Positions 40,237 through 62,076 are shown, counted from the stretch's first letter. The stretch: DNA of 64,000 nt from Verrucomicrobiia bacterium (GCA_028687435.1 JAQUAF010000004.1:66344-130343), one strand, 5' to 3'. Numbers and translations are program-made. Notes: generated from the sequence alone by a model not told the origin.

Positions 40237-40244
40237 ATTAAATT

Positions 40245-40320: not shown

Positions 40321-40331
40321 CCCACCTTAAT

Positions 40332-40385: not shown

Positions 40386-40564
40386 TTAGAGTCGTCGGGA
40401 CGGGACCCCTTTTCCCAACCTGTCACGCCAAAGCCTCGGCGGCGGCGGATTGACAGTTGTCCGTCCCTTGCAAACGTCAATGTCATTTTTAACTCGATCT
40501 GAAACATTTTTCGGGAAATCCTCTCCCAAAACAGGGAGAAATGCCGGATAAGCTCTAAACCGTT

Positions 40565-43500
40565 ATGAAAAACGATACCCCTTTCAAGGCAAGCCGTTAT
40601 GCGCGGCTCTTGTGGAACGAATGGATGATGCAGCCGGACGATGACTGCTACAATATCGGCTTTGTCTATGAAATCACAGGGAAACTGGATGTGGAGCGTC
40701 TGAAAACCGCCCTGCAATGCTATATCAACCGGAACCCGCAGATCCGTTCCTCTTTCAGTGAAAAACAGGAAACCCTGTATCAAACCTTCCAAAGCCAAAT
40801 CAAGGATCCCATCGTTTGCCAGGATTGCTCGGGCCAAGGACAAGAGGAACTCGACGGTCTGATCCAAAAGCTCTGCGGGCAAAGCTTTGATCTCTCCCAT
40901 GCGCCGCTGTTTAAGTTTTCCATCCTTAAAGCCGATGACCACCGGCACTACTTGGCGTTGCGTTTTCACCACATCATCGTTGACGGGACCTCACTCGAAA
41001 AAATCCCCCTGTCGATTGCCGCATTGTATAACGCCACCGATCCATTGCTCCCCGGAGAAGTCGTCGGCGAACCGCCCCAACTGGGCGCTTATTTGGAATA
41101 TGAAGAGGCGCTTTTTAAGAAGTCATCCCTGCCGGAAGCTCTGGATTATTGGGAACAATTGCTTGGCGGCCGGAGCTTGTATGTCAATTTGTCGAAAAAA
41201 GAAAGCGCCCCCAAGAATCCTGATTTTTCAGTCAAAATCTTCAATTTCGATTTGGACCAGAAACTGACGAATCTGATTTCCAATTTGGCCCGGGAAAATT
41301 CCGCCACGGTTTTCCATGTCATGGCGGCGCTCTGGAGCGTTTTCCTGAAAAAATATTCCGGCCAGGAAAGCATTGCCTTTGTTTATCCTGTCGGAATGCG
41401 CCCCGGAAACATGATGGACATGGACGGTTATGCCGTGAACTCGCTGCCGATGGTCACGGATTATCGCGAAAATACGACATTCGTTTCTTTGGTCGGCCAA
41501 ATCAAGGAACAGCGGAAACTCGCCAAACGCCATCAATTCGCCCCTTTTGACGAGATCGTCAACCGATATAATAAAACGGCGCCTTCCAAATACGGCCAAC
41601 AATACAATAACTATCTGAACGCGGTCATCAGCCAATCCAACGAGTTGCTGGACTCGCCGATGGACTTGAAAGGGGTGCAGGTCAAAGCCATCCCCTCCTC
41701 AACCCTGTTCCATGCGGAAATGGGATTGATCTATCGCAAAGAACCTCAGACCCTTCATTGCCAGATCTGTTACAACCAGGCTTTGTTTGAAGATTTTGTT
41801 TACGCGTCGGCAGAAAAGGATTTTACGCGTTTGGCGGAAAGGTTGCTGGCCGATCCCCATCAAGAGGTTGACGCGGTGTCCCTTCTTGCCGAGGGCGACC
41901 GGCAACAAATCCTTTGCGACTGGAACAAAACAGACGTTCCCTTTTCCAAGGAAAAAACCATTTCCGCGCTTTTTGAAGAGCAGGTGGAACAAACACCGGA
42001 CAACCTTGCCGTGGTCTATGAAGGAAAAAGCCTGAGCTACCGGGCTCTCAATCAACAGGCCAATCAACTGGCCCATGCCATTCGGGGGAAATACCGGGAA
42101 TTCCATGGGAAAGAGATCCAAGGCGATACGCTGATCGGGTTTTATATGGAACGCGGCATGGAAATGATTGCCGGCATCCTGGCGATCCTGAAGGCCGGGG
42201 GCGCCTACGTGCCATTTGATCTCGCCGATCCTGAAGAAAGGTTGAAATTCAAGCTTGACGACAGCAATTGCAAAATGATCGTTGCCAGCGCGGAAACCCT
42301 TGAAAAATTGCAGCCGCTGACCGGCGCAAAAATTCCAACGATCAGCATCGACGCCGAGGCGCGCGAAATAGAAAAAAGACCGGCCTCCAACCCGGCGCCG
42401 GTGAATCATTCCAGAAACCTGGCCTGCCTGATCTATACGTCGGGATCGACCGGCCGCCCCAAAGGCGTGATGACCGAGCACTGCGGCGTGGTGAACTTCA
42501 TCGACTATCACCGGAAGAACTTCGTCCCCCTCAAAAAGCATCATCATGTCCTGCAAAGCATTTCCCTGAGTTTCGACGCCTCATGGACCGAATTGGCCCT
42601 CGGGCTTTTTACCGGCTCAACTCTGCATATCGTCAAGTCGATGGCGGAAATGACCGAAAAGCGGATGCTCCAATTTCTCAAGGACCATGAAATCAATGTT
42701 TTCATCTCGACTCCCGCGATGGTGGAAAACCTGTCCAAAAAAGACAGCGCCAGCCTGGAGATCATCATTTGCGGGGGCGAGGTCTGCGAGAAATCAATCA
42801 TGGATGACTGGAGCGACCGGGTCAAATTTTACAACGCCTACGGCCCGACGGAAGCAACGATCTGCGCCACCTATTCCGCGCATCGCCGGAGCAAATCCAA
42901 CCGGAATATCGGAAAGCCGTTGCAGAACAAAAAAGCTTATATCCTTGATGCCAGGCTTAACCCGGTTCCCAAGGGGCTGTGGGGTGAGTTGTATATCGGG
43001 GGAGAAGGCCTGGCCAGGGGCTATTGGAATCGGCCGGAATTGACCCGGGAACGGTTCATGGATGATCCCTTCGCCCCTGCCGCGGGATCGAAAATGTATA
43101 AAACGGGTGACATGGTCCGCTGGCTGGAAGATGGCAGCATCGAGTTTCAGGAAAGAAACGACGACCAGATCAAGATCAACGGCTTCCGGGTGGAACTGGG
43201 TGAAATTGAAAACAAGCTTGCGCAATGCCCCGCCCTCTCCCGCAATGTCGTGGTCTGCAGGGAACGGGCGGGAAGAAAATATCTGGCCGCCTATTATACA
43301 ACCCGCGACAAAATTGAACCCGACGCCTTGAAAAAGCACCTTGCCGGTTTGCTGCCGAATTACATGGTGCCGGGTTGTTTCCTCGAACTGCCCAGGCTTC
43401 CCCTGACTCCCAACGGCAAAATCGACAAAAAAGCGCTTCCCGATCCCCATTTCGAACCAGCCAAGGAAACCTATGCGCCGCCGGAAAACGCAATCCAACG

Positions 43501-46500
43501 GCAATTGTGTCAAACCATGAAGGAGGTGCTGGGATTGGATAAAATCGGAATAAGGGACGACTTCTTCGCCAACGGCGGGGATTCGATTGCCTGCCTGCGG
43601 CTGAGCGCGAAGTGCCGCGACAAGGGGCACGCCCTGAGCCCCAGGGATATCTTCGAAAAACGCACGGCGGAAAATCTTTCCCGCTTGATCCAGGAGAACA
43701 AGGGAAAAGGGGCGGCTCCGGATGATCAGGAGGACTTTTCGCAAACATGCCGGGATTTTCTTCCCGCCGGGCTTTTGGCGGAAATCCATCGCCGTTATGC
43801 CGTTGAGGAAATCCTTCCCGCAAACAGCCTGCAGCAGGGGTTTTTGTATCACCTATTGAGCCATCCGGGTGACGACGCCTATCACATCCAAATGCTGGCG
43901 GACTATCGGCAAGGGATTGACGTCACGAAATACGAACAGGCCTGGAAATACGCCGTAAAAAAATATCCCCCCATGCGGACTTGCTTCAATTGGAAGGAAG
44001 AAATCGTCCAAATCATCTGCCGGGATATCGATTTCAAGCTCAACTTTTCCGATGTTTCCAACCACGAAAATAAAGAGGCGGCCATTGATGAAATCCGCCA
44101 TGCCGATCGGAAAAAGGGTTTCGATCTCGCCCAACCGGGGCTTTTTAGGATTTATCTTGTCAAACAGGGCGAGAGCCATTACACGCTGTTAAAAAGCGAA
44201 CATCACAGCATCACCGACGGCTGGAGCAATTCCCTGCAGTTGAATTATGTCCATGCGGTTTACAAGCAACTCCTGAAAAATCAGTCTCCCCCAAACGAAC
44301 CCGACGAAGCCTACTGCGCCGCGCAAAAACACCTCTTTGTCAACCAGGATAAAGCGCAGGCTTATTGGAACGACCGGATCAAAAAAGCCGCTCCGGCCCA
44401 TGATATCCGCCCGCTCTTTTCGGCAAACCAAAATCCCGATGCCATGAAGAAAATCAGGGAACCCCGGGAATATTCCCTGCGGATAGACGGCGCCCCCTAT
44501 GATCTCATTAAAAAAGCGGGACTCAAGGCCGGGGCAACCCTGAATGTCCTCATTCAGTTCGCCTGGCACAAACTTCTCTCCCTCTATGGCGGCAACAGCC
44601 CGACCGTGGCGGGAACGGTTGTATCGGGAAGAGCCCTTCCCATCAAAGGCATCGAAAACAGCGTGGGTCTTTATGTCAATACGCTGCCGCTGATCGTTGA
44701 CTGGCGGGAAAAAACCGTGCAGGAGCAATTGAATCAAATTCATTCCGCCATGATGGAGATGGACGAACATAGTTCCATGAACATCGGCCAACTCCATCGG
44801 GGGGGGCATCGGCTTTTTCACAGCCTCTTCGTATTTGAAAACTACCCCCTGCCCGAGGAAGAAACCCCGGGGCCGGAAGCCCTTGAATTTACGCTGAGAA
44901 AAGCAGCCGGCAAACTCGATTTCCCCCTTTGTTTGGCGGTCTTTGAAAAGGATCATTCGCTTCTTCTCCAACTGAACTACGATGGCGCTTGTTTATTCCC
45001 GGAAGATGCCAGAAAGCTGATGTCCCAAATGGAGCTGATCATCAACGAAATCCCGGACAAACTCGGGGTTTCCCACCACGCAATCTCCGCTCTTTCCCCC
45101 CTGGATTACGAAAAAACGATTCATCTCTGGAACAAGACCGCCTTGGACTATGGGAGGGATCAAACGATTGCCGAAGCCTTCGAAGCCCAGGCGATGAAAA
45201 CCCCCGGGCAGACCGCCCTGGTCTTTGGCGGGGAAAAATTGACCTATCGGCAACTCAACCAACAGGCCAACCAAATCGCGGCCGCGCTCAAAAAAGATTA
45301 TCTCCAGAACTTCGGGGAAGCCATCAAACCCGGCGCCCTTGTCGGGCTTTACCTGGATCGCTCCGTCCAGATGATCGCCGCCATTCTCGGCATTCTCAAA
45401 GCCGGCGCCGCCTACGTTCCTTTTGACCGCGCCGATCCCGCCGGGCGGCTGCAATACAAAATCGAGGATTGCGCCTGCAAGATGATGCTGACCTCCTCGG
45501 CATGCGCGGCGGATCTGGCCTTTTTGCCGCCCGGACGTCCGGCACGCTGGGAGATCGACCGGCATACGACGGAAATCGCCGCCCAGCCGGATTCCAATCC
45601 GAACCGCATCAATCGCGCCACGGATCTGGCCTATGTCATCTATACCTCGGGTTCGACCGGCCAACCCAAAGGGGTGATGCTGGAGCACTACGGAGTGATC
45701 AACCTGGCGGCGTCCCACCGCCAAAGTTTCAACATCGGGGAACAATCGACGATTTTGCAATTTGCGCCGGTGAGTTTCGACGCCTCGGTCTCGACGCTGT
45801 TCACCACGCTGCTCAACGGCGGCACGCTTTGCCTTTGCCCGGAAGAGACGAGGAAAGACACGCAAAAATTGGGTGAACTGATCGTCCAGAACCGGGTGAC
45901 CCTGATCGATATTCCAGCCAGGTTGCTGGAGGTTTTCCCCCGGGATCTCGACCTGTCGCATTTGCGTTGCATCATCACGGCCGGGGAGGTCTGCGACCAA
46001 AAGACCATGGACTACTGGAGCGGCAAAGTGAGGTTGATCAACGCCTACGGGCCAACGGAAGGCGCCGTCTGCGCGACCTTTTCGATCCATGCGAAAGGGA
46101 AAAGCAACAAGAACATCGGCAAACCGATTGGAAACAAGAAAGTTTATGTTTTGAACAGCGACCTCACCCCCCTGCCGGTGGGGGCGCCCGGGGAGTTGTA
46201 CCTTGGCGGGGACGGACTGGCGCGGGGTTATCTGAACCGGCCGGAGATCACGCGGGAGCGTTTTATGGCAAATCCCTTTCTAAAGGAAGGCGGACCCACG
46301 CTGCGTGAGGCGAGGATTTACAAGACCGGGGATCTGGTGCGCTGGCTGGACAACGGCGAGCTGGAATTCTTGGGACGAAACGACGACCAGGTGAAAATTC
46401 ACGGCTACCGGATTGAACTCGGGGAAATCGAACAACGGCTGCTGTCGTATCCCGGGATCTCGGGCGGCGCGGCAAAAATTCAGGACTGGAAAGGCGCCCC

Positions 46501-46960
46501 CTGTCTCTGCGCCTACTATTCAGTGTCTAAAAAAGTTTTGCCGGAAGAACTGAAAAAACATCTTTCCGCTGCGTTGCCGGATTACATGATCCCTTCGCAT
46601 TGGATGGAGTTGCCAAGCCTCCCGTTGACCGTTTCGGGAAAAATCGACCGGCACGCACTGCCGGTCCCCGAGTTAAAAACGGTTGATGCCCCATGCATCC
46701 CACCCCGCAACGAACTGGAAGCGCGGCTCTGCGAATTGTGGCGGCAGATTCTGGGGCTGGAACGCCTCGGCATTCACGATGACTTTTTCAATTTGGGCGG
46801 CAATTCGATTGCCGCCATCAAACTGGTCAACAAGATGACCGGCCTTTTGGGCGCGGAGATCTCCATCGCCGAGCTCTACCAAAAACGAACCATCGCAAAT
46901 TTTAATTTTGCCGAACAACCGGCCCAAAATAAAATCGAAGGCGAAGAAATCGAACTATGA
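40565..46960 (+). CDS. Non-ribosomal peptide synthetase, two modules (C(starter)-A-T-C-A-T)
   Basis: 2131 aa. C motifs HHIIVDGTS and HHSITDGWS. A-domain cores LIYTSGSTGRPKGV and VIYTSGSTGQPKGV, plus NGK and YKTGD motifs. T domains FFANGGDSIA and FFNLGGNSIA. The stop overlaps the next NRPS start (ATGA). Confidence 0.92.
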   Translation: MKNDTPFKASRYARLLWNEWMMQPDDDCYNIGFVYEITGKLDVERLKTALQCYINRNPQIRSSFSEKQETLYQTFQSQIKDPIVCQDCSGQGQEELDGLIQKLCGQSFDLSHAPLFKFSILKADDHRHYLALRFHHIIVDGTSLEKIPLSIAALYNATDPLLPGEVVGEPPQLGAYLEYEEALFKKSSLPEALDYWEQLLGGRSLYVNLSKKESAPKNPDFSVKIFNFDLDQKLTNLISNLARENSATVFHVMAALWSVFLKKYSGQESIAFVYPVGMRPGNMMDMDGYAVNSLPMVTDYRENTTFVSLVGQIKEQRKLAKRHQFAPFDEIVNRYNKTAPSKYGQQYNNYLNAVISQSNELLDSPMDLKGVQVKAIPSSTLFHAEMGLIYRKEPQTLHCQICYNQALFEDFVYASAEKDFTRLAERLLADPHQEVDAVSLLAEGDRQQILCDWNKTDVPFSKEKTISALFEEQVEQTPDNLAVVYEGKSLSYRALNQQANQLAHAIRGKYREFHGKEIQGDTLIGFYMERGMEMIAGILAILKAGGAYVPFDLADPEERLKFKLDDSNCKMIVASAETLEKLQPLTGAKIPTISIDAEAREIEKRPASNPAPVNHSRNLACLIYTSGSTGRPKGVMTEHCGVVNFIDYHRKNFVPLKKHHHVLQSISLSFDASWTELALGLFTGSTLHIVKSMAEMTEKRMLQFLKDHEINVFISTPAMVENLSKKDSASLEIIICGGEVCEKSIMDDWSDRVKFYNAYGPTEATICATYSAHRRSKSNRNIGKPLQNKKAYILDARLNPVPKGLWGELYIGGEGLARGYWNRPELTRERFMDDPFAPAAGSKMYKTGDMVRWLEDGSIEFQERNDDQIKINGFRVELGEIENKLAQCPALSRNVVVCRERAGRKYLAAYYTTRDKIEPDALKKHLAGLLPNYMVPGCFLELPRLPLTPNGKIDKKALPDPHFEPAKETYAPPENAIQRQLCQTMKEVLGLDKIGIRDDFFANGGDSIACLRLSAKCRDKGHALSPRDIFEKRTAENLSRLIQENKGKGAAPDDQEDFSQTCRDFLPAGLLAEIHRRYAVEEILPANSLQQGFLYHLLSHPGDDAYHIQMLADYRQGIDVTKYEQAWKYAVKKYPPMRTCFNWKEEIVQIICRDIDFKLNFSDVSNHENKEAAIDEIRHADRKKGFDLAQPGLFRIYLVKQGESHYTLLKSEHHSITDGWSNSLQLNYVHAVYKQLLKNQSPPNEPDEAYCAAQKHLFVNQDKAQAYWNDRIKKAAPAHDIRPLFSANQNPDAMKKIREPREYSLRIDGAPYDLIKKAGLKAGATLNVLIQFAWHKLLSLYGGNSPTVAGTVVSGRALPIKGIENSVGLYVNTLPLIVDWREKTVQEQLNQIHSAMMEMDEHSSMNIGQLHRGGHRLFHSLFVFENYPLPEEETPGPEALEFTLRKAAGKLDFPLCLAVFEKDHSLLLQLNYDGACLFPEDARKLMSQMELIINEIPDKLGVSHHAISALSPLDYEKTIHLWNKTALDYGRDQTIAEAFEAQAMKTPGQTALVFGGEKLTYRQLNQQANQIAAALKKDYLQNFGEAIKPGALVGLYLDRSVQMIAAILGILKAGAAYVPFDRADPAGRLQYKIEDCACKMMLTSSACAADLAFLPPGRPARWEIDRHTTEIAAQPDSNPNRINRATDLAYVIYTSGSTGQPKGVMLEHYGVINLAASHRQSFNIGEQSTILQFAPVSFDASVSTLFTTLLNGGTLCLCPEETRKDTQKLGELIVQNRVTLIDIPARLLEVFPRDLDLSHLRCIITAGEVCDQKTMDYWSGKVRLINAYGPTEGAVCATFSIHAKGKSNKNIGKPIGNKKVYVLNSDLTPLPVGAPGELYLGGDGLARGYLNRPEITRERFMANPFLKEGGPTLREARIYKTGDLVRWLDNGELEFLGRNDDQVKIHGYRIELGEIEQRLLSYPGISGGAAKIQDWKGAPCLCAYYSVSKKVLPEELKKHLSAALPDYMIPSHWMELPSLPLTVSGKIDRHALPVPELKTVDAPCIPPRNELEARLCELWRQILGLERLGIHDDFFNLGGNSIAAIKLVNKMTGLLGAEISIAELYQKRTIANFNFAEQPAQNKIEGEEIEL
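45128..46440. repeat. 1313-bp near-identical direct repeat (copy 1) covering the adenylation domain of NRPS1 module 2
   Basis: Identical to 51646..52958 at a constant offset of 6518 nt with 2 mismatches. The antisense ORF translations in the track are identical between the copies. Confidence 0.9.
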
Positions 46961-49900
46961 ATATCCTTGGACTTTTTCGGGACCTGAAAAAGCGGAACAT
47001 CTCCCTGTGGTGCGAGGCTGGCAAGCTGAAGGCTTTTCTCCCCAAAGGCGGATCCCTTGCCGCCGGGGAAAAGGGTTTTATCGATGAGAACAAACCGGAA
47101 ATTCTCCGGATCTTGCAGGAGAACGGAATCCAGGCAAAGGAGGATTTTCCCGGCCGCGAGATTTACCGGAATGTCCTTGCCAAGGGCAACTGGGGGCTGT
47201 CCTATGCCCAGGAACGGTTATGGTTTCTGGAGCAGTATGAAGGAGGAAGCTCGGCCTACAACGTCCCGCTCCTGCTCGATCTTGGCGCCGGCGTTGATCT
47301 TCCGGCTTTTAAGCAGAGCGTTGAGCGTGTGGCTGCACGTCACGAAGTCCTGCGGACGGTTTTCAGGAAAGACAGCGCCGGCAACGACTATCAATGCATC
47401 CTTCCCGGGACGCCGGCGATCCATGAAGAACGTCTTTTGGAAAAAGATCTCCCCGCCCGGTTGAAACAAAACATCAACTCCGTTTTTGATCTGGTCCATG
47501 AAGGCCCCTTGAAAGTCTGGCTCTTGCGCACCGAGCGCACGGTGTATGCCTTGATCAATCTGCATCATCTCGCCGTTGACGGTTGGTCCATGGGGATCCT
47601 GACCGCCGAACTGGAAAATTTTTACCAGGCCGGCATGGAAAACAGGGAGCCGAAACTGGCGGGACTCGACATTCAATACAAGGATTTTTCCTTGTGGCAA
47701 AAGGATTGTCTCTCGGGCGAAGAACTCGCCCGCAACCTTGCGTTCTGGAAAAAGCGTCTGGAGGGATATGAACCGTTGGATTTTCCGACGGATTTTCCAC
47801 GCCCCTCCCGTGTGGATTACGCCGGTGAATACGTTCCCTTTGAACTCGACGAGAAACTTTCCGTGTCGCTGAAGAAGCTGGCCGCCCAAAAAGGAACGAC
47901 TCTTTACGTCGTTTTGTTGTCCGCTTTTTACCTGCTGCTGCATAAATACACCGCTCAGAGTTCCCTGGTCGTGGGAACGGTGGCCGCGAACCGAAACCAT
48001 AAACAACTCGAAAATCTGATCGGTTTTTTTGTCAACAGCCTTGTCCTGAACATACAGATCGATCGGGAATCAACCTTTGACCGCCTGATCGACCAGGTCA
48101 AAAGCCTCCTGGTGGATGGGCAAACGTTTCAAGAGCTTCCTTTTGAGAAACTCGTTGAGCTTCTGAAATTGGAACACGACCCATCCCGTCACCCGATTTT
48201 CCAGATTATGTTTGGCGGAATGGGTTTTGGTGAAAACAAGCAAAGATTGTTCAGGGAAGTCCCGCTGGACAGCCATTATAAGCCCGCCAAATTCGATTTG
48301 AGCCTCTTTATCGATGAGCGCGATTCTGCGCTAAAGGGAACCTTCAATTATCGGGTGGCGCTTTTTAAGGAGGAAACCATCCGCCGGTTGAAGGATCATT
48401 TTGTCAACATCCTTGGCCAGATCGCCAAAAACAGCGCCGTCCCGATCAAGGAGATCAGCTTTCTTTCCAACCGTGAATACGAAACGCTGATTTACGAGTG
48501 GAACAAAACCGACGCAGCTTATCCGCAGAGCAGGACCATCATCGAACTTTTTGAGGAGCAAGCAAAAGAAAACCCCGATCAGCCAGCCATTCTTTGCCAG
48601 GGGGAATGCTTAACCTATCGGGAACTGAATGAAAAGACGAACCAACTGGCCCATACCATCCGCAAAGTCTTTCATGAATTTAACGGGACGCCCATTGCCG
48701 GCGATACGCTCATTGGAATCTATATCGACCGTTCGGTTGAAATGGCGCTGGCCATTCTCGGCATCTTAAAGGCCGGGGCCGCCTATGTCCCATTTGATTC
48801 GGCGGACCCGCAGGACCGGCTTAAATTCAAAGTCAATGACTGCGGTTGCAAAATGGTGCTGACCACCGCGAACAACCTGGAAGACCTGGTGTTTCTTGCC
48901 GAAACGGACACCATCCCCTTCTCGGTCGACGGGTACATGGATGAAATCCGGAAAGCGCCAACCAGCAACCCGGGCCGGGTCAATGGCCCGGAAAATCTGG
49001 CCTACATCATCTATACCTCGGGTTCCACGGGAAGGCCAAAGGGGGTCATGCTCGAACATCGCAGCGTCATCAATTACATTGAAAATTTCAAAAATGCCAC
49101 CGCCCCCGGAAAAAAAATCGTCGATCTGTCGAGCAGTCTCAGCTTTGACCTTACGGTGACAACCACGCTTGTCCCGCTGGCAACCGGAAGCACGATCGCC
49201 ATCTACCCGGGAAACTTGCAGGACATCGACGGCTACATGAAGCACCTGGCAGCCTGCGGCGTGACCTTTGTCAAAACCGTTCCCAGCCTGTTGTACCTGC
49301 TGCTGCAACGCGAAAAACCGGCCTCCCTTGCCGAAATATTCGTTGGTGGAGAAAAGCTCAAAAGGGAGTTGTTGGCCCATCGCGAAGGACTCACGATTTA
49401 TGACGAGTATGGCCCCACCGAAGCCACCGTGGGGACGACTCTCGCCAATGTTTTTCCGCTCAATCAAAACGGCATTGGCAAACCTTACCATCATTACAAG
49501 GTCTATATTCTGGACGCCGGCTTGAAACCGGTTCCCATCGGCGTCAAAGGCGAGCTTTTCATCGGCGGCGCCTGTCTGGCCAGGGGCTATTTTAACCGGC
49601 CGGAACTCACTCAAGAACGCTTTATTGCCAATCCGTTTGCCACGGCCGGGGAAAAACAAAAGGGATTAAACGCGAGGATCTATAAAACCGGCGATATCGT
49701 TCGCTGGCTGCCGGATGGCAACATCGAGTATCTCGGACGCAATGACGACCAGGTGAAAATCCGCGGTTTCCGGATCGAACTGGGGGAAATTGAGCAAAGG
49801 TTGTCCGAACATCCATCGATCGAACATTGCGCGGTCGTATGCAAAGAAGTGAACGCCAACAAGTATCTGATCGCCTATTATGTCGCTTCCCGGGAGTTGA

Positions 49901-52900
49901 CCTCCGACACTCTGCAAGATGACCTCAGCCGGATCCTTCCGGAGCATATGATCCCGTCCTGTTTTATCGCCCTGCCGGAAATGCCGCTGACCGTGAACGG
50001 GAAAGTCAACCATAAGGCCCTCCCCTCGCCTGATTTCAGGGGCGACGCCAACGACTTCCAACCTCCGCGCAATGATGCCGAGGCCCTCCTGTGCCGGCTG
50101 TGGAAAGAAATTTTGGGAATCGACAAAGTCGGCATCAACGACGATTTTTTCAAACTAGGCGGTCATTCCATCCTGGCCATCAAACTCTGCCATAGGATGA
50201 CCAAGGAACTGCAGCGGGAAATTCCAATTGCCGCGCTGTTTGAGAAAAAAACCATCAAGGGAATCTCCTCCGCCCTCCCGCTGTTCAAGCGTCTGGTTGC
50301 GATCAAGCATTATGCCGAAACCGAAGCCATCCTCTCCTTTGCCCAGGAACGCCTTTACTTTATCGAGGAGTATGAACGGGGCAGCAAGGCTTACAATATT
50401 CCGATCCTGCTGGAGCTCGACCCAAGCGTCGATCTGCGCGCATTGAGGGAATCGCTGCGGAGCATCGTCGATCGGCATGAAGTTTTGAGAACCGTTTTTG
50501 CGAAAAACGAGCAGGGAATCGTTTATCAGAAAGTCAAAACCGGCCCGCTGGAAATAGCGGAGATCAACGTGGCGGAGGCGGATTTCCCTCGGCAGGCAAG
50601 CGAACGCATCAATATCGCCTTTGACCTGCACCTCGAGTATCCAATACGGGCAACGCTGCTTTCCACCGATCGGCGAAGGTGTTTGCTGGTCAATATCCAT
50701 CACATCGCGTTTGACGGTTGGTCGGCGGATATTTTCTTGCGGGAACTGAACGCCTTTTACCGGCATCATCGCGAGGGCGTTCCCCACGGGCTTCCCCCCC
50801 TGGAAATCCAATACAAGGATTTTGCCCTCTGGCAACGGGATTGTCTTTCCGGGGAAAATCTGGAGCGGGAACTGGCTTACTGGAAAAACAATCTGCAAGA
50901 TTGCGAAACGCTGGAGCTTCCCGTTGACAAACCACGCCCCCCCGAAGTCGATTACCACGGCGATTATTTCGCATTCAATCTCGATGAGGATATTTCCCGT
51001 CAAGCGCGGCAATGCGCAAAAAAATATGGGACAACCCCTTACACAGTTTTTTTAAGCGCTTTTTACATCCTGCTTCACAAATACAGCGGCCAGAGCGATA
51101 TCGTCGTCGGCGCCCCCACAGCCAACCGGCATTATGCCCAACTGGAAAACCTCATCGGCTTTTTCGTGAATTCCACGCCCATGCGGTTCCGGCTGGCTCA
51201 GACGCCGGACATTAAAAGCCTGATGGAGAACACCGCGGCATCCCTGGCCGACATGCAGTCCCACCAGGATTTGCCATTCGAAAAACTGGTTGACCTCCTG
51301 GGCGTGCCCAAAGACCCGTCGCGACACCCGTTGATCCAGGTGATGTTCAGCGTGCAGAGCTTTGGATCCCTCGATCAAAAAAATGGGCCGGGCCTTTTCA
51401 AGAATATCGACACCACGGAGTCGTATAAAATCGCCAAATACGATTTAAGCCTCTTCATCGACGATTCCCAGGAAAGGTTTTCCTGCGGCTTTAACTACGC
51501 CACCAGCTTGTTCACGCGGGCCGCCATTGAAAGGATGGCCAGCCATTACAATGCCGTTTTGCGGGCCTTTTTATCGGGAGAAAATCGGCGGATCAAAGAC
51601 ATCAATCTCTTAACCGGTGACGAATTCGAGACGATCATCCGGAATTGGAACAAGACCGCCTTGGACTATGGGAGGGATCAAACGATTGCCGAAGCCTTCG
51701 AAGCCCAGGCGATGAAAACCCCCGGGCAGACCGCCCTGGTCTTTGGCGGGGAAAAATTGACCTATCGGCAACTCAACCAACAGGCCAACCAAATCGCGGC
51801 CGCGCTCAAAAAAGATTATCTCCAGAACTTCGGGGAAGCCATCAAACCCGGCGCCCTTGTCGGGCTTTACCTGGATCGCTCCGTCCAGATGATCGCCGCC
51901 ATTCTCGGCATTCTCAAAGCCGGCGCCGCCTACGTTCCTTTTGACCGCGCCGATCCCGCCGGGCGGCTGCAATACAAAATCGAGGATTGCGCCTGCAAGA
52001 TGATGCTGACCTCCTCGGCATGCGCGGCGGATCTGGCCTTTTTGCCGCCCGGACGTCCGGCACGCTGGGAGATCGACCGGCATACGACGGAAATCGCCGC
52101 CCAGCCGGATTCCAATCCGAACCGCATCAATCGCGCCACGGATCTGGCCTATGTCATCTATACCTCGGGTTCGACCGGCCAACCCAAAGGGGTGATGCTG
52201 GAGCACTACGGAGTGATCAACCTGGCGGCGTCCCACCGCCAAAGTTTCAACATCGGGGAACAATCGACGATTTTGCAATTTGCGCCGGTGAGTTTCGACG
52301 CCTCGGTCTCGACGCTGTTCACCACGCTGCTCAACGGCGGCACGCTTTGCCTTTGCCCGGAAGAGACGAGGAAAGACACGCAAAAATTGGGTGAACTGAT
52401 CGTCCAGAACCGGGTGACCCTGATCGATATTCCAGCCAGGTTGCTGGAGGTTTTCCCCCGGGATCTCGACCTGTCGCATTTGCGTTGCATCATCACGGCC
52501 GGGGAGGTCTGCGACCAAAAGACCATGGACTACTGGAGCGGCAAAGTGAGGTTGATCAACGCCTACGGGCCAACGGAAGGCGCCGTCTGCGCGACCTTTT
52601 CGATCCATGCGAAAGGGAAAAGCAACAAGAACATCGGCAAACCGATTGGAAACAAGAAAGTTTATGTTTTGAACAGCGACCTCACCCCCCTGCCGGTGGG
52701 GGCGCCCGGGGAGTTGTACCTTGGCGGGGACGGACTGGCGCGGGGTTATCTGAACCGGCCGGAGATCACGCGGGAGCGTTTTATGGCAAATCCCTTTCTA
52801 AAGGAAGGCGGACCCACGCCGCGTGAGGCGAGGATTTACAAGACCGGGGATCTGGTGCGCTGGCTGGACAACGGCGAGCTGGAATTCTTGGGACGAAACG

Positions 52901-55900
52901 ACGACCAGGTGAAAATTCACGGCTACCGGATCGAACTCGGGGAAATCGAACAACGGCTCTCGGCCATCGAGGGAATCTCCCTCTGCGCGGTAAAAGTGTT
53001 TGAAAGGGAAAACTCCAAGTGCCTATGCGCCTATTATTCGCGAATCTCAAAAATATCGGAAAACCAAATCAGGAATCAGCTGGCCGCCGTATTGCCCGAT
53101 TACATGACGCCGGCCTATTATGTCGAGCTCGAGTCGTTTCCCCTGAACACTTCCGGCAAGATTGACCGGAAAGCCTTGCCGTCCCCGGATCTCAGCCTCG
53201 AAAGGGCCGCTTATACCGCCCCTGGCGCCCCTCTGGAAAAAACGCTTTGTGAGACTTTCCAGAAGTTGCTTCACGTGGATAAAATCGGGGTGAATGATGA
53301 TTTCTTCAAAAATGGCGGCGATTCGATTTTGAGCATTCAGCTTTGTTCAGCCCTGAAAAAGGCGGGGATTTCCTGCGCCGTCAAGGATCTCTTCAAAAAT
53401 CCAACGGTCAAAAAGCTCGCCAATCATCTTTCCTCCCCCCAAGGGCCGGCTATTCCGATCATCCGCGAAACCGGCGTGTTGGAAGGGGAATTTGAACTGC
53501 TGCCCATCCAAAAATGGTTTTTTGACAAAGTGGAAAGCGGAAGCTTCGGACGCCCCAACCACTGGAACCAAAGCTTTATGTTGAAGGTTCCGCCGCTTGA
53601 TCCGGAGGCGATAAAAAGGGCCATCAGCGCTCTGACCGGCCATCACGATATGCTCCGGGCCACTTTTAAAGGGAGGACCCAGAAATACAACCCGGCGATT
53701 GCCGTTCCTAAATTAAAGCTTCTCGATCGAAGCGGATTGGCGGACGAAAAACTTTTTGCCATCCTCACCGAATGGCAGAGCGGTTTTGACATTGAGAATG
53801 GGCCTCTTTGGCAGATCGGCTACATCACCGGCTATCCCGACGGCGGCGCCAGGTTGTTTTTCGCTTTTCATCATCTGATCATCGATGCGGTCAGTTGGAG
53901 AATCATCAGCGATGATTTCAGAAGAGTTTATGACGGCGAGCCTTTGAATGAAAAGGGAAGCAGTTACCGGCAATGGGTCCATGAAATGGGGCATTACCGG
54001 CAAACACACAGGGAAGAAGCCGCCTATTGGGAAAATGTCCTGGGCTCGCTTCCCGCCCACCCCATCGCCAATGACCAACACAAAAGCATTCAGCGCACAC
54101 CGTCATTTCGGGAAGTCCGCTTTGAAAAGGAATTCACCGCCCAACTGCTTAAAGAAGCCCATGCCGCTTATGCCACCTCCATCAATGACCTGCTGCTGAC
54201 TGCCGCGGCCTATATGCTTAAAGACTGGCTGGGCGGCGGCCTTCAGGGGATCACCTTGGAAGGACACGGACGGGAAAATATCAATCCTGCCATCGACCAC
54301 AGCCATACCGTGGGCTGGTTCACGAATACTTATCCCGTAAAACTGGAGGTCGGCCGGGATATGTCTGCAACGATCATGGGGATAAAAGAAAACCTGACCC
54401 GCATTCCGAACAAGGGAATCGGTTTCGGGGCCTGCTTGTCCGGCAACAAAAAGCAAAGGCTGCCGCCGATAACCTTTAATTATCTCGGTCAACTCGACGG
54501 CGCCGACGACGTCAATACCTGGCCCTTTGCGGCCGAACCAGCGGGACAAAGCACCGCGGCGGAAAATAGCGACACCAGCCTGATTGCCATGAATGGGTTT
54601 GTCGCGGAGGGAGAACTCCGTTTCCAGTTCATGACCAACCTGGGAGAACAGGCAACCGCCCAATGCGCCCAAAACTTTGAGCGGACGCTCAAAACGGTGG
54701 TTGAGCATTGTCTTGCCGCGCGGCGAACCGGCGCCCCGGCCGTCCAACAAACGGCGGAATTCGAGTATGTGCCCTGCCTTTTATTGAACCAGGAAGCCCG
54801 CTCGAATAAATTGATGATCATGGTTCATCCGGATTCCGGTTATGAGGCCTATATGGCTTCGCTGTATCCTGCGCTCTCCAGTGACATCAAGGTCATTCTT
54901 ATCGATAACTACTACAAAAAAGTTTATCTGCAAAACGGCGTCACGTTGGCCAAAAGCGATCTCAACGGCTTCAAGGATTTGGCGGATTATTACATCAAAC
55001 TCCTGTTTGCCAAAGAAAGGGAGCTGTTGGAACAATCCGCCTGTTCACTGCTGGGTTACAGCTTTGGCTGTCCGATCGCATGGGAAATGCACCGCATCCT
55101 CAAGGGCCATGCCATCGCCGTTAACGACCTCTACATGGTCGACCCCCTGCTGCCGTCCTTGCTGAAAACCAAACGACGGCTGAATTGCTTCTCATGGTAC
55201 GAGGAATATCTTCCGGCGCCGACGGAAACGCCCGTGATCCATTTCCATTGCACGGTTCCCGATCCGTCCATTCCGGGTTATGCCGAGCATTTCACGGACA
55301 AAGAAAATTATTCCCTGCGATCCATCGCCCAAAACCTGCGGGAATATGAAATAAAGTGCCACCATACCGGCATCCTCAACAATCCCGACTTTATAAAAAC
55401 TTTCCAAACGACGGCGAACAGCGGTTGGGTCATTAAGGATGAAAGCGCAAGACAGACCACAGGCAGAGGCGGCGACATCCAACGGATTGAACTCGCGGTA
55501 AGGGAAATCCTGTCAAAGATTATGAGGCCGGAAAAAGAATTGGCCGGCGCAGAAAACCTTTTCCACCAGGGGTGCGCTTCCATCCAGACGTTGTCGATCC
55601 TGGCCATGGTCAATGATCGATTCCGGCTGTCCATGTCTCTGCCTGACATCATCCGAAACTTTACCATCGACGGCCTGGCCGCCTTGATCGCCAAGAACGA
55701 GGTTGTCCGAAAAAGCGATCCCGTCTGGGAACCTGTGGTGTTCAAAAGCCGGAATCCGGATGCCGCCAATCTGTATTTCCTCCCCGGTTTTATCGGATCG
55801 GTGGGTTCCTACAGTCGAATCTGCTCCGGCTTGTCCAGGCTTTTCAATGTCATCTTCATGGAACCCAAGGGAATGTATGGCGATATGACGCCTTTTGCCT

Positions 55901-56550
55901 CCCCGGCCGAAGCGCTCGCCGTTTATGCAAGCGAGATCACCCAAAGAAATAAGATCGATTCTCCCGTTTTCCTGGCCGGCCACTCGGTGGGTTCGGTTCA
56001 TTCATTGGATCTGGCGATCAAACTGGAGGAAATGGGATACCGGAAGGTGGGCCTGATCAATATCGACGGTTACTTGCACAAGATGGAAAGTCTCATGCAA
56101 TCGTTCAGAACCCTCAATTTGGATGCGGCCCTGGTGGCGGCGATAAAAAGATTCTTCAAGGAAAACCCGGCAAAGGAATCCGCCCTGGCGCCGCAGGATC
56201 CGGTGCGGGAAATCGCCTCGATTTTGTTCCCATCGCCGGAGGTGAGCCGGGATTACGCCTTAAGGGTTGCCCTGGGATACCGCAATATCTGGCATCAGCA
56301 AATTGACGACATCATCAAATACAACGAGCCCTCCCGGAAATTCGCCGGCAAGCCCCTGGCGTTCATCACTCTGGATTCGGATAAAAAAATCCAGGAGATG
56401 ATCCTGCGCTCATGCCATGAGCGCTACGCCGGCAAGTTTCAACTCCATTATATTGAGGGAGACCACTTGAGTTGCATTATCAAGCAGGAACTCATCGAGA
56501 AAGTTGTCAATCTTGTCTCCCAATGGAAAGAGTCCTCAAGCGTTTTTTAG
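46957..56550 (+). CDS. Non-ribosomal peptide synthetase, two modules plus termination region (dock-C-A-T-C-A-T-E-TE-T-TE)
   Basis: 3197 aa. N-terminal TubC-like docking domain (LGLFRDLKKRNISLWCEAGKLKAFLPKGG). C motifs HHLAVDGWS and HHIAFDGWS. A cores IIYTSGSTGRPKGV and VIYTSGSTGQPKGV. T domains FFKLGGHSIL and FFKNGGDSIL. Epimerisation domain motifs E1-E7 (PIQKWFF; HHLIIDAVSWRI; EGHGRE; HTVGWFTNTYP; FNYLGQ). Thioesterase GYSFG, a degenerate carrier-like segment (LFHQGCASIQ) and a second alpha/beta-hydrolase TE (GHSVG). Confidence 0.92.
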   Translation: MNILGLFRDLKKRNISLWCEAGKLKAFLPKGGSLAAGEKGFIDENKPEILRILQENGIQAKEDFPGREIYRNVLAKGNWGLSYAQERLWFLEQYEGGSSAYNVPLLLDLGAGVDLPAFKQSVERVAARHEVLRTVFRKDSAGNDYQCILPGTPAIHEERLLEKDLPARLKQNINSVFDLVHEGPLKVWLLRTERTVYALINLHHLAVDGWSMGILTAELENFYQAGMENREPKLAGLDIQYKDFSLWQKDCLSGEELARNLAFWKKRLEGYEPLDFPTDFPRPSRVDYAGEYVPFELDEKLSVSLKKLAAQKGTTLYVVLLSAFYLLLHKYTAQSSLVVGTVAANRNHKQLENLIGFFVNSLVLNIQIDRESTFDRLIDQVKSLLVDGQTFQELPFEKLVELLKLEHDPSRHPIFQIMFGGMGFGENKQRLFREVPLDSHYKPAKFDLSLFIDERDSALKGTFNYRVALFKEETIRRLKDHFVNILGQIAKNSAVPIKEISFLSNREYETLIYEWNKTDAAYPQSRTIIELFEEQAKENPDQPAILCQGECLTYRELNEKTNQLAHTIRKVFHEFNGTPIAGDTLIGIYIDRSVEMALAILGILKAGAAYVPFDSADPQDRLKFKVNDCGCKMVLTTANNLEDLVFLAETDTIPFSVDGYMDEIRKAPTSNPGRVNGPENLAYIIYTSGSTGRPKGVMLEHRSVINYIENFKNATAPGKKIVDLSSSLSFDLTVTTTLVPLATGSTIAIYPGNLQDIDGYMKHLAACGVTFVKTVPSLLYLLLQREKPASLAEIFVGGEKLKRELLAHREGLTIYDEYGPTEATVGTTLANVFPLNQNGIGKPYHHYKVYILDAGLKPVPIGVKGELFIGGACLARGYFNRPELTQERFIANPFATAGEKQKGLNARIYKTGDIVRWLPDGNIEYLGRNDDQVKIRGFRIELGEIEQRLSEHPSIEHCAVVCKEVNANKYLIAYYVASRELTSDTLQDDLSRILPEHMIPSCFIALPEMPLTVNGKVNHKALPSPDFRGDANDFQPPRNDAEALLCRLWKEILGIDKVGINDDFFKLGGHSILAIKLCHRMTKELQREIPIAALFEKKTIKGISSALPLFKRLVAIKHYAETEAILSFAQERLYFIEEYERGSKAYNIPILLELDPSVDLRALRESLRSIVDRHEVLRTVFAKNEQGIVYQKVKTGPLEIAEINVAEADFPRQASERINIAFDLHLEYPIRATLLSTDRRRCLLVNIHHIAFDGWSADIFLRELNAFYRHHREGVPHGLPPLEIQYKDFALWQRDCLSGENLERELAYWKNNLQDCETLELPVDKPRPPEVDYHGDYFAFNLDEDISRQARQCAKKYGTTPYTVFLSAFYILLHKYSGQSDIVVGAPTANRHYAQLENLIGFFVNSTPMRFRLAQTPDIKSLMENTAASLADMQSHQDLPFEKLVDLLGVPKDPSRHPLIQVMFSVQSFGSLDQKNGPGLFKNIDTTESYKIAKYDLSLFIDDSQERFSCGFNYATSLFTRAAIERMASHYNAVLRAFLSGENRRIKDINLLTGDEFETIIRNWNKTALDYGRDQTIAEAFEAQAMKTPGQTALVFGGEKLTYRQLNQQANQIAAALKKDYLQNFGEAIKPGALVGLYLDRSVQMIAAILGILKAGAAYVPFDRADPAGRLQYKIEDCACKMMLTSSACAADLAFLPPGRPARWEIDRHTTEIAAQPDSNPNRINRATDLAYVIYTSGSTGQPKGVMLEHYGVINLAASHRQSFNIGEQSTILQFAPVSFDASVSTLFTTLLNGGTLCLCPEETRKDTQKLGELIVQNRVTLIDIPARLLEVFPRDLDLSHLRCIITAGEVCDQKTMDYWSGKVRLINAYGPTEGAVCATFSIHAKGKSNKNIGKPIGNKKVYVLNSDLTPLPVGAPGELYLGGDGLARGYLNRPEITRERFMANPFLKEGGPTPREARIYKTGDLVRWLDNGELEFLGRNDDQVKIHGYRIELGEIEQRLSAIEGISLCAVKVFERENSKCLCAYYSRISKISENQIRNQLAAVLPDYMTPAYYVELESFPLNTSGKIDRKALPSPDLSLERAAYTAPGAPLEKTLCETFQKLLHVDKIGVNDDFFKNGGDSILSIQLCSALKKAGISCAVKDLFKNPTVKKLANHLSSPQGPAIPIIRETGVLEGEFELLPIQKWFFDKVESGSFGRPNHWNQSFMLKVPPLDPEAIKRAISALTGHHDMLRATFKGRTQKYNPAIAVPKLKLLDRSGLADEKLFAILTEWQSGFDIENGPLWQIGYITGYPDGGARLFFAFHHLIIDAVSWRIISDDFRRVYDGEPLNEKGSSYRQWVHEMGHYRQTHREEAAYWENVLGSLPAHPIANDQHKSIQRTPSFREVRFEKEFTAQLLKEAHAAYATSINDLLLTAAAYMLKDWLGGGLQGITLEGHGRENINPAIDHSHTVGWFTNTYPVKLEVGRDMSATIMGIKENLTRIPNKGIGFGACLSGNKKQRLPPITFNYLGQLDGADDVNTWPFAAEPAGQSTAAENSDTSLIAMNGFVAEGELRFQFMTNLGEQATAQCAQNFERTLKTVVEHCLAARRTGAPAVQQTAEFEYVPCLLLNQEARSNKLMIMVHPDSGYEAYMASLYPALSSDIKVILIDNYYKKVYLQNGVTLAKSDLNGFKDLADYYIKLLFAKERELLEQSACSLLGYSFGCPIAWEMHRILKGHAIAVNDLYMVDPLLPSLLKTKRRLNCFSWYEEYLPAPTETPVIHFHCTVPDPSIPGYAEHFTDKENYSLRSIAQNLREYEIKCHHTGILNNPDFIKTFQTTANSGWVIKDESARQTTGRGGDIQRIELAVREILSKIMRPEKELAGAENLFHQGCASIQTLSILAMVNDRFRLSMSLPDIIRNFTIDGLAALIAKNEVVRKSDPVWEPVVFKSRNPDAANLYFLPGFIGSVGSYSRICSGLSRLFNVIFMEPKGMYGDMTPFASPAEALAVYASEITQRNKIDSPVFLAGHSVGSVHSLDLAIKLEEMGYRKVGLINIDGYLHKMESLMQSFRTLNLDAALVAAIKRFFKENPAKESALAPQDPVREIASILFPSPEVSRDYALRVALGYRNIWHQQIDDIIKYNEPSRKFAGKPLAFITLDSDKKIQEMILRSCHERYAGKFQLHYIEGDHLSCIIKQELIEKVVNLVSQWKESSSVF
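51646..52958. repeat. 1313-bp near-identical direct repeat (copy 2) covering the adenylation domain of NRPS2 module 2
   Basis: See copy 1 (45128..46440). Protein-level difference is a single residue (GGPTLREA vs GGPTPREA). Confidence 0.9.
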
Positions 56551-56714
56551 AAGATGCGCGAAAAGGATCGCGCCATTCGCAATGCTGATTTTCCCAACAG
56601 TCTTTTTCTCACCGCACAGTCTTCAAAAAAATCCAAACTTTAATCTTGAACTTGGCGCATTGCCCCTTGACCCTTGAATCTTAAACCGCGAGGCCGCATT
56701 GCCTTGCCAGAACC

Positions 56715-57023
56715 ATGTTTAACTATCATTTTCAAGAAGGCCCGGAAAAAACGCTTGTCATTGTCATGGCAGGCGAACTGGATACCCTTGCGGCACAACC
56801 GATCCAAAAAGAGATTGAGCTTTATAAGGGAAAAAACTACGAGAAAGTCTTGTTCGAAATGTCCAATCTGACCTACATGGCCAGTTCCGGGCTGCGGGTT
56901 ATTTTTTATGCCCAAAAGAATTTGGGTGAAAATGTAAAAATTGAAATCAAAGGGGCCAAGGAACTGGTGGCTAAAATACTGCAAATCAGCGGCATGTCGA
57001 AATATGTGACGACCGTTCCGTAG
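56715..57023 (+). CDS. STAS-domain protein (anti-sigma-factor antagonist, SpoIIAA-like)
   Basis: 102 aa. VIVMAGELDTLAAQPIQKEI...LTYMASSGLRVI is a typical STAS fold sequence with a phosphorylatable Ser region. Confidence 0.65.
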   Translation: MFNYHFQEGPEKTLVIVMAGELDTLAAQPIQKEIELYKGKNYEKVLFEMSNLTYMASSGLRVIFYAQKNLGENVKIEIKGAKELVAKILQISGMSKYVTTVP

Positions 57024-57105
57024 CGCGGGAACAAGTCGTCCAGAGGCCGACCCTCCATTGATTTCCAATTGGAGGAGAATGGAGAGCGGGACTCCTGCAC
57101 GGTTT

Positions 57106-57131
57106 GGCTTCAGGTAGTCTGAAGCCTGATT
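57106..57131 (+). terminator. Putative intrinsic terminator between convergent STAS and MFS genes
   Basis: GGCTTCAG-GTAGT-CTGAAGCC hairpin followed by TGATTTTATGG. A degenerate family-A repeat lies just upstream (57048-57104). Confidence 0.4.
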
Positions 57132-58601
57132 TTATGGTTCCGGCTTGTCCGGGTTGGGGATAGACGCCAAATTTTTCATCGCCGATCGGATCACGGCATA
57201 GCCGGATAAAATGGTTAACCCGGCAACCAGAAAGATCAAACCCCGGCTGGCGGCCATCAGTTGGCCGAGAATCAATGCGCTCGCAAACCACATGAGGGAG
57301 TAGATCTGTCCCAACCCGCCCATCACAACCCCCTGTTCGCCCGGTTTGGCAATATTGGAGTAAAGCGTGGTAAGTCCCAATTGGACAAACGGCAGGGCGA
57401 GAAAAAACAACAGAGCCACAGTCCAGAGTTCAAAGGGCAGAAGCGAGCCTCTTCTTAAATCGGAGACAAACAGGAAGAGGAACAGCAGGCCTTGGGCCAG
57501 AAGGCTGAACAAAATCAACTTGCGGTAATCGAAGTGTTTCAGGGCGCCGGGCTGAAGAAAAAAAACGCTTACCCCCAGGGACAGGGCCACAAAAATAAAA
57601 AACACCCCGATGTCAGACGGGGAATATCCGAAGACATGGGCCAGATAAAGGGAAATGGATTGGAGAAAAAGCCCGAAGCCGAAATAAAAAAAAGAATAGC
57701 CCAGGTTCAACTTTTTCAGCGCGGTTGACCGCAGCAAATAGGTGATGGACGCAAAAATGTTCCGCCATGGCGAAGCCGTTTGATCATTCAAGACACAGGG
57801 CGCAGTCTCGGCAAAAACAAAAAACAGCATGACCCCATTCACCAGCGACAAAAACGCGGCCAGAAAAAAGGGAAGAGCCAGGGGAAAAGGAAACGGTATC
57901 AAATGAATCCCGGAGGAAATGGCCGGCCCCAGGATAAACCCGGCAATATTGGCGATCACGGGCCATTTGAAATTGCTGAGCTTGCTCCGCGTGTCCGCGC
58001 TGATATCGGAAATAACCGCATTGGCAATGACCAGGGTGCCGCAACAAAAACCGCTGACAGCCCGGGCCGACAAAAAAAGCAAATAACTGCCGATGACGAT
58101 GCTCCATGCTCCCAGGAAATAGCCGGCGACAATGCCGGCCAAACCGGCCAAAATCAATTTTCGCCGTCCGTAAAAGTCCGACAGCCCGCCAAGAATCGGC
58201 ATGCCGAAAAAACTCAAAAGAGGGAAGGCTGCAAAGGCCATCCCGTAAAGAATATCCCGGGACAAGAAAATCTCATCGGCTTGGATAAGCCCTTGGACGG
58301 GGTCAAGAAACAGCTTGGGCATGAGGGGATAAATGATAGCCACCCCCAGCGCATCGATAAAAATCAGCGAATAAAGCGCAAACAGCCTTTTGTTCAAAAT
58401 GCCCCTAGCCTTCGCAGAGATAAAAGTGTTTTTCCCACTGTTTAAAATGTTTCTTTTGAAACAGGCTTCCAGACACAAACCAGCGCCTCCAGCAAACCAA
58501 CGACAAGCAACACCAGGAATGTTTTTTTCATGGAAGGGACGCCCATCAGAGTTTTTCGCCGCTTTGTTTCCCTTCATAGCGCCATCCAGGGCGGAATTCA
58601 A
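57132..58601 (-). CDS. MFS transporter (DHA/TetA-like drug:H+ antiporter family), probable exporter for the NRPS product
   Basis: 12-14 predicted TM helices. Motif-A-like GGLSDFYGRRKLILAG. The start is uncertain: the ORF maximum is 58601, and internal ATGs are possible. Confidence 0.75.
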   Translation of the reverse strand: MNSALDGAMKGNKAAKNSDGRPFHEKNIPGVACRWFAGGAGLCLEACFKRNILNSGKNTFISAKARGILNKRLFALYSLIFIDALGVAIIYPLMPKLFLDPVQGLIQADEIFLSRDILYGMAFAAFPLLSFFGMPILGGLSDFYGRRKLILAGLAGIVAGYFLGAWSIVIGSYLLFLSARAVSGFCCGTLVIANAVISDISADTRSKLSNFKWPVIANIAGFILGPAISSGIHLIPFPFPLALPFFLAAFLSLVNGVMLFFVFAETAPCVLNDQTASPWRNIFASITYLLRSTALKKLNLGYSFFYFGFGLFLQSISLYLAHVFGYSPSDIGVFFIFVALSLGVSVFFLQPGALKHFDYRKLILFSLLAQGLLFLFLFVSDLRRGSLLPFELWTVALLFFLALPFVQLGLTTLYSNIAKPGEQGVVMGGLGQIYSLMWFASALILGQLMAASRGLIFLVAGLTILSGYAVIRSAMKNLASIPNPDKPEP

Positions 58602-58635
58602 TCATGAACCGCCGGCAGCGCATTCCCAGGTACCT

Positions 58636-58989: not shown

Positions 58990-59141
58990 AAGCGACGATT
59001 TATCGGACTCAAAACGCGATTGCAGACAAGCTCAATTTGCCCCCCCCTGCGCCCGCTCATTGCCCGGCTTGCGCGGAATTGTATTGGCCTCCCATATCAG
59101 TTATATTTTCCTGATGTTCAGAAAACTCAAATCCGCGGCAT

Positions 59142-62018: not shown

Positions 62019-62076
62019 CGAGAATCAGCCTCAACCCAACTGAAGCGAAACCTCGCAATTCAAAAGAAAAAATTTA

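Follow-up and report, generated by a model that had tools for sequence, protein, structure and literature searches.

Results

Two coupled NRPS genes share an almost identical 1.3-kb segment

The locus studied here lies in a 64,000-nucleotide stretch of DNA from a Verrucomicrobiia bacterium (GCA_028687435.1 JAQUAF010000004.1:66344-130343; hereafter the window) and comprises two non-ribosomal peptide synthetase (NRPS) genes on the plus strand, together termed cluster W. The first, NRPS1 (40565..46960; 2,131 aa), has the domain order C1-A1-T1-C2-A2-T2 and constitutes modules 1 and 2. The second, NRPS2 (46957..56550; 3,197 aa), has the order dock-C3-A3-T3-C4-A4-T4-E-TE1-T5-TE2 and provides modules 3 and 4 together with a release region (C, A, E and TE denote condensation, adenylation, epimerisation and thioesterase domains). 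These assignments were made from the list of open reading frames and from Pfam matches, and the two products correspond exactly to MDD2706956.1 and MDD2706957.1, proteins of a Verrucomicrobiae metagenome-assembled genome (MAG) that are encoded on a 173,647-bp contig and were each found once. The stop codon of NRPS1 and the start codon of NRPS2 overlap as ATGA, and the genes are translationally coupled.

A repeat scan, followed by an ungapped base-by-base comparison at an offset of 6,518, showed that positions 45128..46440, within the adenylation domain of module 2 (A2), and positions 51646..52958, within that of module 4 (A4), match at 1,311 of 1,313 nucleotides. The two copies are in direct orientation on the plus strand and in the same codon phase, 6,518 nt apart. 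One of the two differences (T at 46302, C at 52820) falls on a second codon position and replaces CTG, encoding Leu1913 of NRPS1, with CCG, encoding Pro in NRPS2, in a loop that is variable across all homologues. The other (T at 46414, C at 52932) is synonymous (ATT/ATC, Ile). A first-pass annotation of the window had reported this near-identity, with its single L-to-P change, and had placed the copies in the second module of each gene; the base count bears out the former, and the Pfam domain order agrees with the latter.

Both edges of the shared tract are sharp. Immediately upstream, 17 of 28 nucleotides are mismatched, and downstream the identity is ∼ 55%. The remaining pairs of A domains in the two genes are only 55–57% identical over the columns of the tract, and chance is thereby ruled out as the source of the identity. 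No third copy of the tract is present within the window.

That the copies belong to NRPS adenylation (ANL) domains is supported by matches to PF00501 (269 bits) and PF13193, and by matches of the A domains to the structures of GrsA (1AMU) and LgrA. Moreover, the FDxS, NxYGPTE and GKxD motifs align in the A domains, and the equivalents of the conserved residues Asp235 and Lys517 are present.

The tract is in codon register in both genes and covers residues 1522–1958 of NRPS1 and 1564–2000 of NRPS2. Its left end is the Trp codon of a WNKT motif, ∼ 35 residues ahead of motif A1, and its right end lies five residues beyond motif A8 (GYRIELGEIEQRL; DDQVKIHGYRIELGEIEQRL). The first-pass annotation let the A domain finish with GEIEQRL; this sequence in fact closes core motif A8 and sits at the hinge between the Acore and Asub parts of the domain. 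The AMP-binding_C region (NRPS1 residues ∼ 1954–2026), motifs A9 and A10 and the Lys517 equivalent lie outside the tract and are divergent between the copies. The copied unit is therefore the Acore plus the A8 hinge and not the entire A domain; the earlier statement that it begins just after the C-A linker holds. Nine of the ten specificity-code residues are inside the tract.

The sequences on either side are clearly different in the two modules. Upstream of copy 1 lies C2 (43805..45088, plus strand), delimited by Pfam and profile alignment, and upstream of copy 2 lies C4 (50317..51630, plus strand), which is LCL-like and orthologous to the C4 domains of two related lineages, K and J, described below. 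C2 and C4 share only ∼ 19% amino acid identity (82/426) and, judged by their sequences, are unrelated. Domains C1, C3 and C4 align to the first C domain of a PvdL-like NCBIfam profile; the best alignment of C2 is to the C domain located after the profile's E domain, which suggests that C2 is DCL-like. In cluster W, C2 has this DCL-like character although module 1 is without an E domain. Modules 2 and 4 become alignable close to the tract's left edge, the 30 codons ahead of it being ∼ 62% identical. Downstream of copy 1, the native remainder of Asub (A9, A10 and the Lys) and T2 (46441..46900, plus strand) are unconverted, with ∼ 49–63% nucleotide identity to their module 4 counterpart. The latter, comprising the native Asub remainder and T4 (52959..53430, plus strand), is orthologous to module 4 of lineages K, J and E. 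These values are in keeping with the earlier remark that the flanking C and T domains differ.

Synonymous sites are indicative of copying

The first-pass annotation had proposed that third codon positions be compared inside and outside the repeat. Inside the tract 436 of 437 third positions are identical, compared with 40% in the 165 codons that follow and 27% on the upstream side, a contrast that is indicative of copying and not of purifying selection. Over all positions the tract is 99.85% identical, against ≤ 55% in the flanking paralogous sequence. With synonymous sites identical inside and saturated outside, and with flanks that keep their positional orthology, the data are as expected from gene conversion or homologous recombination, the process that had been suggested from the repeat itself.

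The tract also differs from its surroundings in base composition. Its GC content is 58.5% and its GC content at third codon positions (GC3) is 74%, whereas the remainder of both genes has a GC content of 52–53% and a GC3 of 61–68%. GC3 is likewise raised in A2 and A4 of lineage J (71–75%) but not in those of lineage K. The raised GC3 may be a footprint of GC-biased conversion, although the signal is weak and ambiguous. The same composition could be taken to mean that one foreign A segment was acquired independently by both modules, or it could be supposed that selection at the nucleotide level keeps the two segments identical; either account is extremely improbable. The tract is 63–64% identical to A2 and A4 of lineages K and J, the same distance that separates the flanking C4 and T4 from their orthologues, which marks it as native to the family, and selection cannot maintain 436 of 437 synonymous positions identical. 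In addition, no closer A domain was found among 5.8 billion proteins, the best match from outside the family being 47% identical. A word-index search with the 437-aa tract returned nothing above 47%, a search that did not list the family members either, and a scan of genome contigs with NRPS1 found relatives at only ∼ 30% identity.

A2 and A4 pair within genomes in related clusters

Related clusters were recovered from metagenomes and fall into lineages K (L039; also L043 and L044), J (L041), M (L042) and E (L040). The L039 cluster is on a 330-kb JGI contig and occurs again in the two further assemblies, L043 and L044; lineage M is 88% identical to J at the nucleotide level. The K cluster has the same five-module architecture as W, with ∼ 59% amino acid identity throughout NRPS2. 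The order and architecture of the two copies are reproduced in the three independent assemblies of K and in J, and the spacing between A2 and A4 is 6,518 nt in W, 6,533 nt in K and 6,512 nt in J. The contig of lineage E starts at the end of C4 and that of lineage M inside the Asub of A4; E contributes A4 only and M no Acore, and both A2 and A4 are present in three lineages only, W, K and J. These contig starts may be assembly breaks induced by the similarity of A2 and A4.

Over the tract columns, W A2 and W A4 are 99.8% identical, and K A2 and K A4 are 89.6% identical. J A2 and J A4 vary between 68 and 91% per 75-nt window, with 79% over 2,041 nt. Between lineages the values are lower: the W copies are 63–64% identical to the K copies, and the J copies are ∼ 70% identical to the K copies without favouring the positional orthologue. 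A neighbour-joining (NJ) bootstrap tree of the tract accordingly recovers the pairs (W2,W4), (K2,K4) and (J2,J4), each with 100% support. When the neighbouring T-domain columns of this alignment are used, NJ instead groups the sequences by position, with 100% for (K2,J2) and 90% for (W4,K4,J4,E4). Pairing of A2 and A4 within genomes, combined with grouping of T domains by position, is what gene conversion and concerted evolution classically leave behind.

The extent of the converted unit differs between lineages. In W it is the 1.3-kb Acore only, whereas in K it is ∼ 3.8 kb long and of the T-C-A type, with L039 positions 12371–16198 matching 18904–22731, a stretch that opens at about T1/T3, includes C2/C4 and closes with the end of Asub. 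The unit in J is like that of K as far as the J locus extends. C2 of K (L039 ∼ 13200–14500) and of J is an 85–90% copy of C4 and is LCL-like, so that two branches of the cluster family have different C-domain types at the C2 position.

Comparison of the three K assemblies gives a glimpse of what may be the same process on a smaller scale. Their NRPS genes are identical except for two single-nucleotide polymorphisms (SNPs) 26 nt apart in A2, at L039 positions 15598 and 15624 (paralogous sites 22131 and 22157). At both sites L039 has the A4 allele, and L043 and L044 have the A2-specific allele. The L039 alleles yield an exact run of 111 nt between A2 and A4; no other such run in the domain is longer than 50 nt. 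This patch is a candidate for one short, ongoing A4-to-A2 micro-conversion, an explanation preferable to a pair of neighbouring point mutations; an error of local assembly may also lie behind it. Over 26 kb, the K assemblies otherwise vary only by one SNP at position 2332 and by the copy number of a 39-nt tandem repeat (unit CTTTCACCCCAGG), a difference seen in L044 at ∼ 866–904 (relative to L039) upstream of a catalase gene.

Specificity codes and the predicted peptide

Specificity codes were read by aligning all A domains to a GrsA-PheA fragment. The Stachelhaus code DASDIAAVCK was found in W A2, W A4, K A2, K A4 and E A4. By sequence it resembles aromatic (Tyr/Phe-type) codes, though with Asp at position 278. 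The A1 code is DATIIGAICK in both W and K, and the A3 code is DLTKFGEVGK, which agrees at nine of ten positions with DLTKLGEVGK, presumably the code for Asn. Modules 2 and 4 are thus predicted to load the same substrate, as the first-pass annotation had proposed from the repeat.

The codes also bear on how the exchange is to be understood. One possibility is that the tract records a first-time, diversifying Acore replacement, in which module 2 or module 4 formerly loaded another amino acid and the peptide was changed. Specificity-changing Acore swaps are the common case in the literature (PMC8097286; PMC3640908), and in W the surroundings of A2 (C2 and the Asub remainder) are about equally distant from all other modules, such that the ancestral A2 core may have been distinct. 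However, all A2 and A4 domains recovered carry the same code, in three lineages, and they pair within genomes; in the simplest history the two cores were already alike. RecA-type exchange depends on long exact matches, which cores only ∼ 55% identical would moreover not offer; a pre-existing similar pair would recombine more easily. A diversifying replacement is, on this evidence, quite unlikely. To describe the repeat as a natural module swap, as had been done, overstates the case, since A2 and A4 are also each other's closest paralogues in K and J and the code is constant in every A2 and A4 recovered. It follows that the conversion most likely left the product unchanged.

NRPSs that start with a C domain are associated with N-acylation of the product. 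NRPS1 starts with such a domain, and N-acylation is therefore suggested; the E domain after T4 (53482..54720, plus strand), identified by TIGR01720 (76.3 bits; cut-off 74.2) and by the E region of the PvdL-like profile, predicts that the residue loaded by A4 is D-configured. The predicted product is a lipopeptide-type N-acyl tetrapeptide in which one and the same aromatic-type residue would occupy position 2 (L) and, after epimerisation, position 4 (D), with Asn predicted at position 3.

Release region and genomic surroundings

The end of NRPS2 (53482–56502) is unusual in its order T4-E-TE1-T5-TE2, in which the E domain is followed by a thioesterase and only then by another T-TE pair. TE1 extends from 54817 to ∼ 55450, its GYSFG, DPL and HT motifs are invariant across W, K and E, and the order is kept in all five recovered lineages. 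A gap of 260 aa after the last condensation-like domain was considered as a degenerate A domain; this was rejected, as the region is a thioesterase and the condensation-like domain is the E domain.

Genes neighbouring the cluster are consistent with a Verrucomicrobiae origin and include a DUF1559 gene with a prepilin-type N-methylation motif and glycoside hydrolase genes. The NRPS region (40000–60000) has a GC content of 0.50–0.55, against 0.56–0.59 in the rest of the window (1–30000). It is bracketed by an 82-nt intergenic repeat containing a GGCCGGGCC...GGCCCGGC hairpin (40238–40319 and 62074–62155; 99% identity). A third copy occurs 40 kb away at 596–674 (89%), and there are partial inverted matches at 60625–60693. 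The repeat was considered as the ends of a mobile island, but the copy at 596–674 identifies it as a dispersed REP-like intergenic element, and this idea was rejected. The gene neighbourhood of W differs from those of K and E, where STAS and SpoIIE genes sit downstream, and lineage E has a GC content of ∼ 36%. The cluster appears to move between genomes.

Discussion

The preferred reading of these data, with a probability of about 0.78, is that the tract is the product of the latest round of intra-cluster gene conversion, a form of concerted evolution, between two Acores of like function, and that the product was most likely left unchanged. The event would have been a recent, non-reciprocal homologous recombination (intrachromosomal gene conversion) between in-phase, direct paralogous segments 6.5 kb apart, in which one Acore overwrote the other. 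Since C2 is unrelated to C4, the left border would lie near the onset of alignable similarity between modules 2 and 4, at the WNxT motif that follows the C-A linker. The right border would fall in the conserved A8 hinge motif. Neither module would thus have lost its native C domain, C-A linker, Asub or T domain. Recurrent conversion of this kind would keep A2 and A4 alike in each lineage, with differing tract lengths.

The direction of transfer was probably from A4 to A2, with copy 2 as the probable donor. Three observations point this way: the C2 domains of K and J are copies of C4, a type to which the C4 of W is orthologous; the distance from the W tract to the cores of K and J matches that from C4 and T4 to their respective orthologues; and the candidate micro-conversion patch in K also runs from A4 to A2.

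Several points weigh against this interpretation. The direction is no more than suggested by the presence of a C4 copy at the C2 position in K and J and by the K micro-patch, and with three lineages both an ancestral A2 similar to A4 and independent conversions of A2 fit the data. The codes were read against a GrsA reference whose numbering was self-consistent at positions 235, 278, 299/301, 322 and 330/331, and no paper was retrieved for any of the three specificity codes when the literature was searched. Furthermore, this organism is represented by a single assembly in the collections searched, from which the near-perfect identity derives; an exact look-up of both NRPS proteins in a contig index gave no second assembly.

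The last point raises the question of an assembly or polishing artefact, in which the true cores are more divergent and one consensus was written into both places. The source is a MAG, the exact repeat of 1,174 nt exceeds short-read inserts, and neither difference is more than 139 nt away from the right-hand unique flank, a range in which short reads could still phase the copies. The E and M contigs, which start inside or next to module 4, show that the region troubles assemblers. However, an artefactual duplication is contradicted by the presence of both modules at the same order and spacing in K and J, close resemblance of A2 and A4 is common to the family, and both reading frames in W are intact. 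A repeat of this kind would normally interrupt a short-read graph and would not be traversed within a 173-kb contig. Copies like those of K and J (80–90%) assemble unmerged, and polishing could merge only copies that were already ∼ 98% identical or more, in which case the biological conclusion would stand even then. An artefact is thus considered very unlikely.

Gene conversion between the two Acores may be taken one step further. It is conceivable, though unlikely, that a persistent conversion bias from module 4 to module 2 holds the two modules in lock-step, with selection tolerating or favouring a shared, unusual substrate. The borders would then be set by the swappability of the interfaces (the Acore alone behind a DCL-like C2, T-C-A in lineages whose C2 was copied from C4), and the raised GC3 of the tract would be a footprint of GC-biased conversion. 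If this were true, the cluster family would be a natural experiment in which one Acore works behind two C-domain types and before two Asub-T pairs.

The W tract resembles exchanges already described in NRPS evolution. Natural NRPS recombination mainly exchanges the Acore and keeps the C-A linker, the Asub and the Asub-T interface, with C-A or T-C-A-T exchange units as rarer exceptions (Baunach et al. 2021, Mol Biol Evol, PMC8097286). Like those Acore exchanges, the W tract (WNKT to A8) is confined to the Acore and has its breakpoints in conserved core motifs; W is a textbook Acore exchange, whereas K and J, with a unit of approximately T-C-A, represent the rarer type. Most cases of Baunach et al. 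were recognised by a changed amino acid. Here, in contrast, donor and recipient belong to the same cluster and have apparently the same function, and there is no evidence that the loaded residue changed, as W and K have one code in both A2 and A4 and E has it in A4. The W event also differs from the published Acore cases in being almost fresh, with 0.15% divergence.

In microcystin synthetase (mcyA2, mcyB1/mcyC), tracts of ∼ 1 kb cover the specificity-conferring part of the A domain, and A-domain trees are mixed whereas those of C, T and E domains are positional (PMC3640908). The discordance between A-core and T-domain trees in W, K and J is of the same kind. The mcy events, however, change the toxin variant and occur in cyanobacteria, whereas here no change is predicted and the host is a Verrucomicrobium. 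Gene conversion inside biosynthetic gene clusters (BGCs) has been reviewed as very common (PMC13500794), and Booth et al. noted that conversion homogenises (2022, PMC9205934). The present case is similar in being a probable one-way copy-and-paste within one BGC, in which homogenisation masks the duplication history (PMC9205934; PMC13500794). The best-documented examples of concerted evolution are the KS and AT domains of polyketide synthases, whereas the present one concerns an NRPS in three lineages with differing tract lengths.

The units used in NRPS engineering offer a further comparison. The ∼ 3.8-kb unit of K, in which T1-C2-A2 is similar to T3-C4-A4, resembles a natural T-to-T unit of the XUT type (preprint 10.1101/2022.12.02.518901). 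The W unit, unlike those of the XU and XUT engineering concepts, ends at A8 and not in the T domain or the C-A linker. At its other end the W tract starts at WNxT; the WNATE motif of the C-A linker is the XU fusion point. PvdD of Pseudomonas aeruginosa reportedly has two nearly identical, adjacent Thr modules in one protein, whereas here the Acore alone is shared, across two proteins and with different types of C domain. The W tract therefore adds to a known mode of NRPS evolution and is not a new mechanism.

The repeat may itself have consequences for the cluster. A 1.3-kb direct repeat can delete or duplicate modules 3 and 4, and it makes the region hard to assemble. The first-pass annotation had pointed out that a deletion between the copies would fuse the two genes into a two-module synthetase; as the copies are in the same codon phase, recombination between them would indeed give an in-frame C1-A1-T1-C2-A-T4-E-TE-T-TE fusion, or else a duplication of modules 3 and 4. 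No deletion or duplication fusion variant was present among the proteins searched, and an exact scan of metagenome contigs with 42 nt of the tract gave 0 matches, the organism being absent from that collection.

Overall, the tract is a nearly fresh natural Acore exchange unit, of the kind that NRPS engineers imitate, with borders resolved to the nucleotide, in a host phylum whose non-ribosomal peptides have barely been studied. The same residue is predicted at positions 2 and 4 of the peptide, and one Acore operates behind both an LCL-like and a DCL-like C domain. Across lineages, one pair of modules has been homogenised repeatedly, with different tract lengths.

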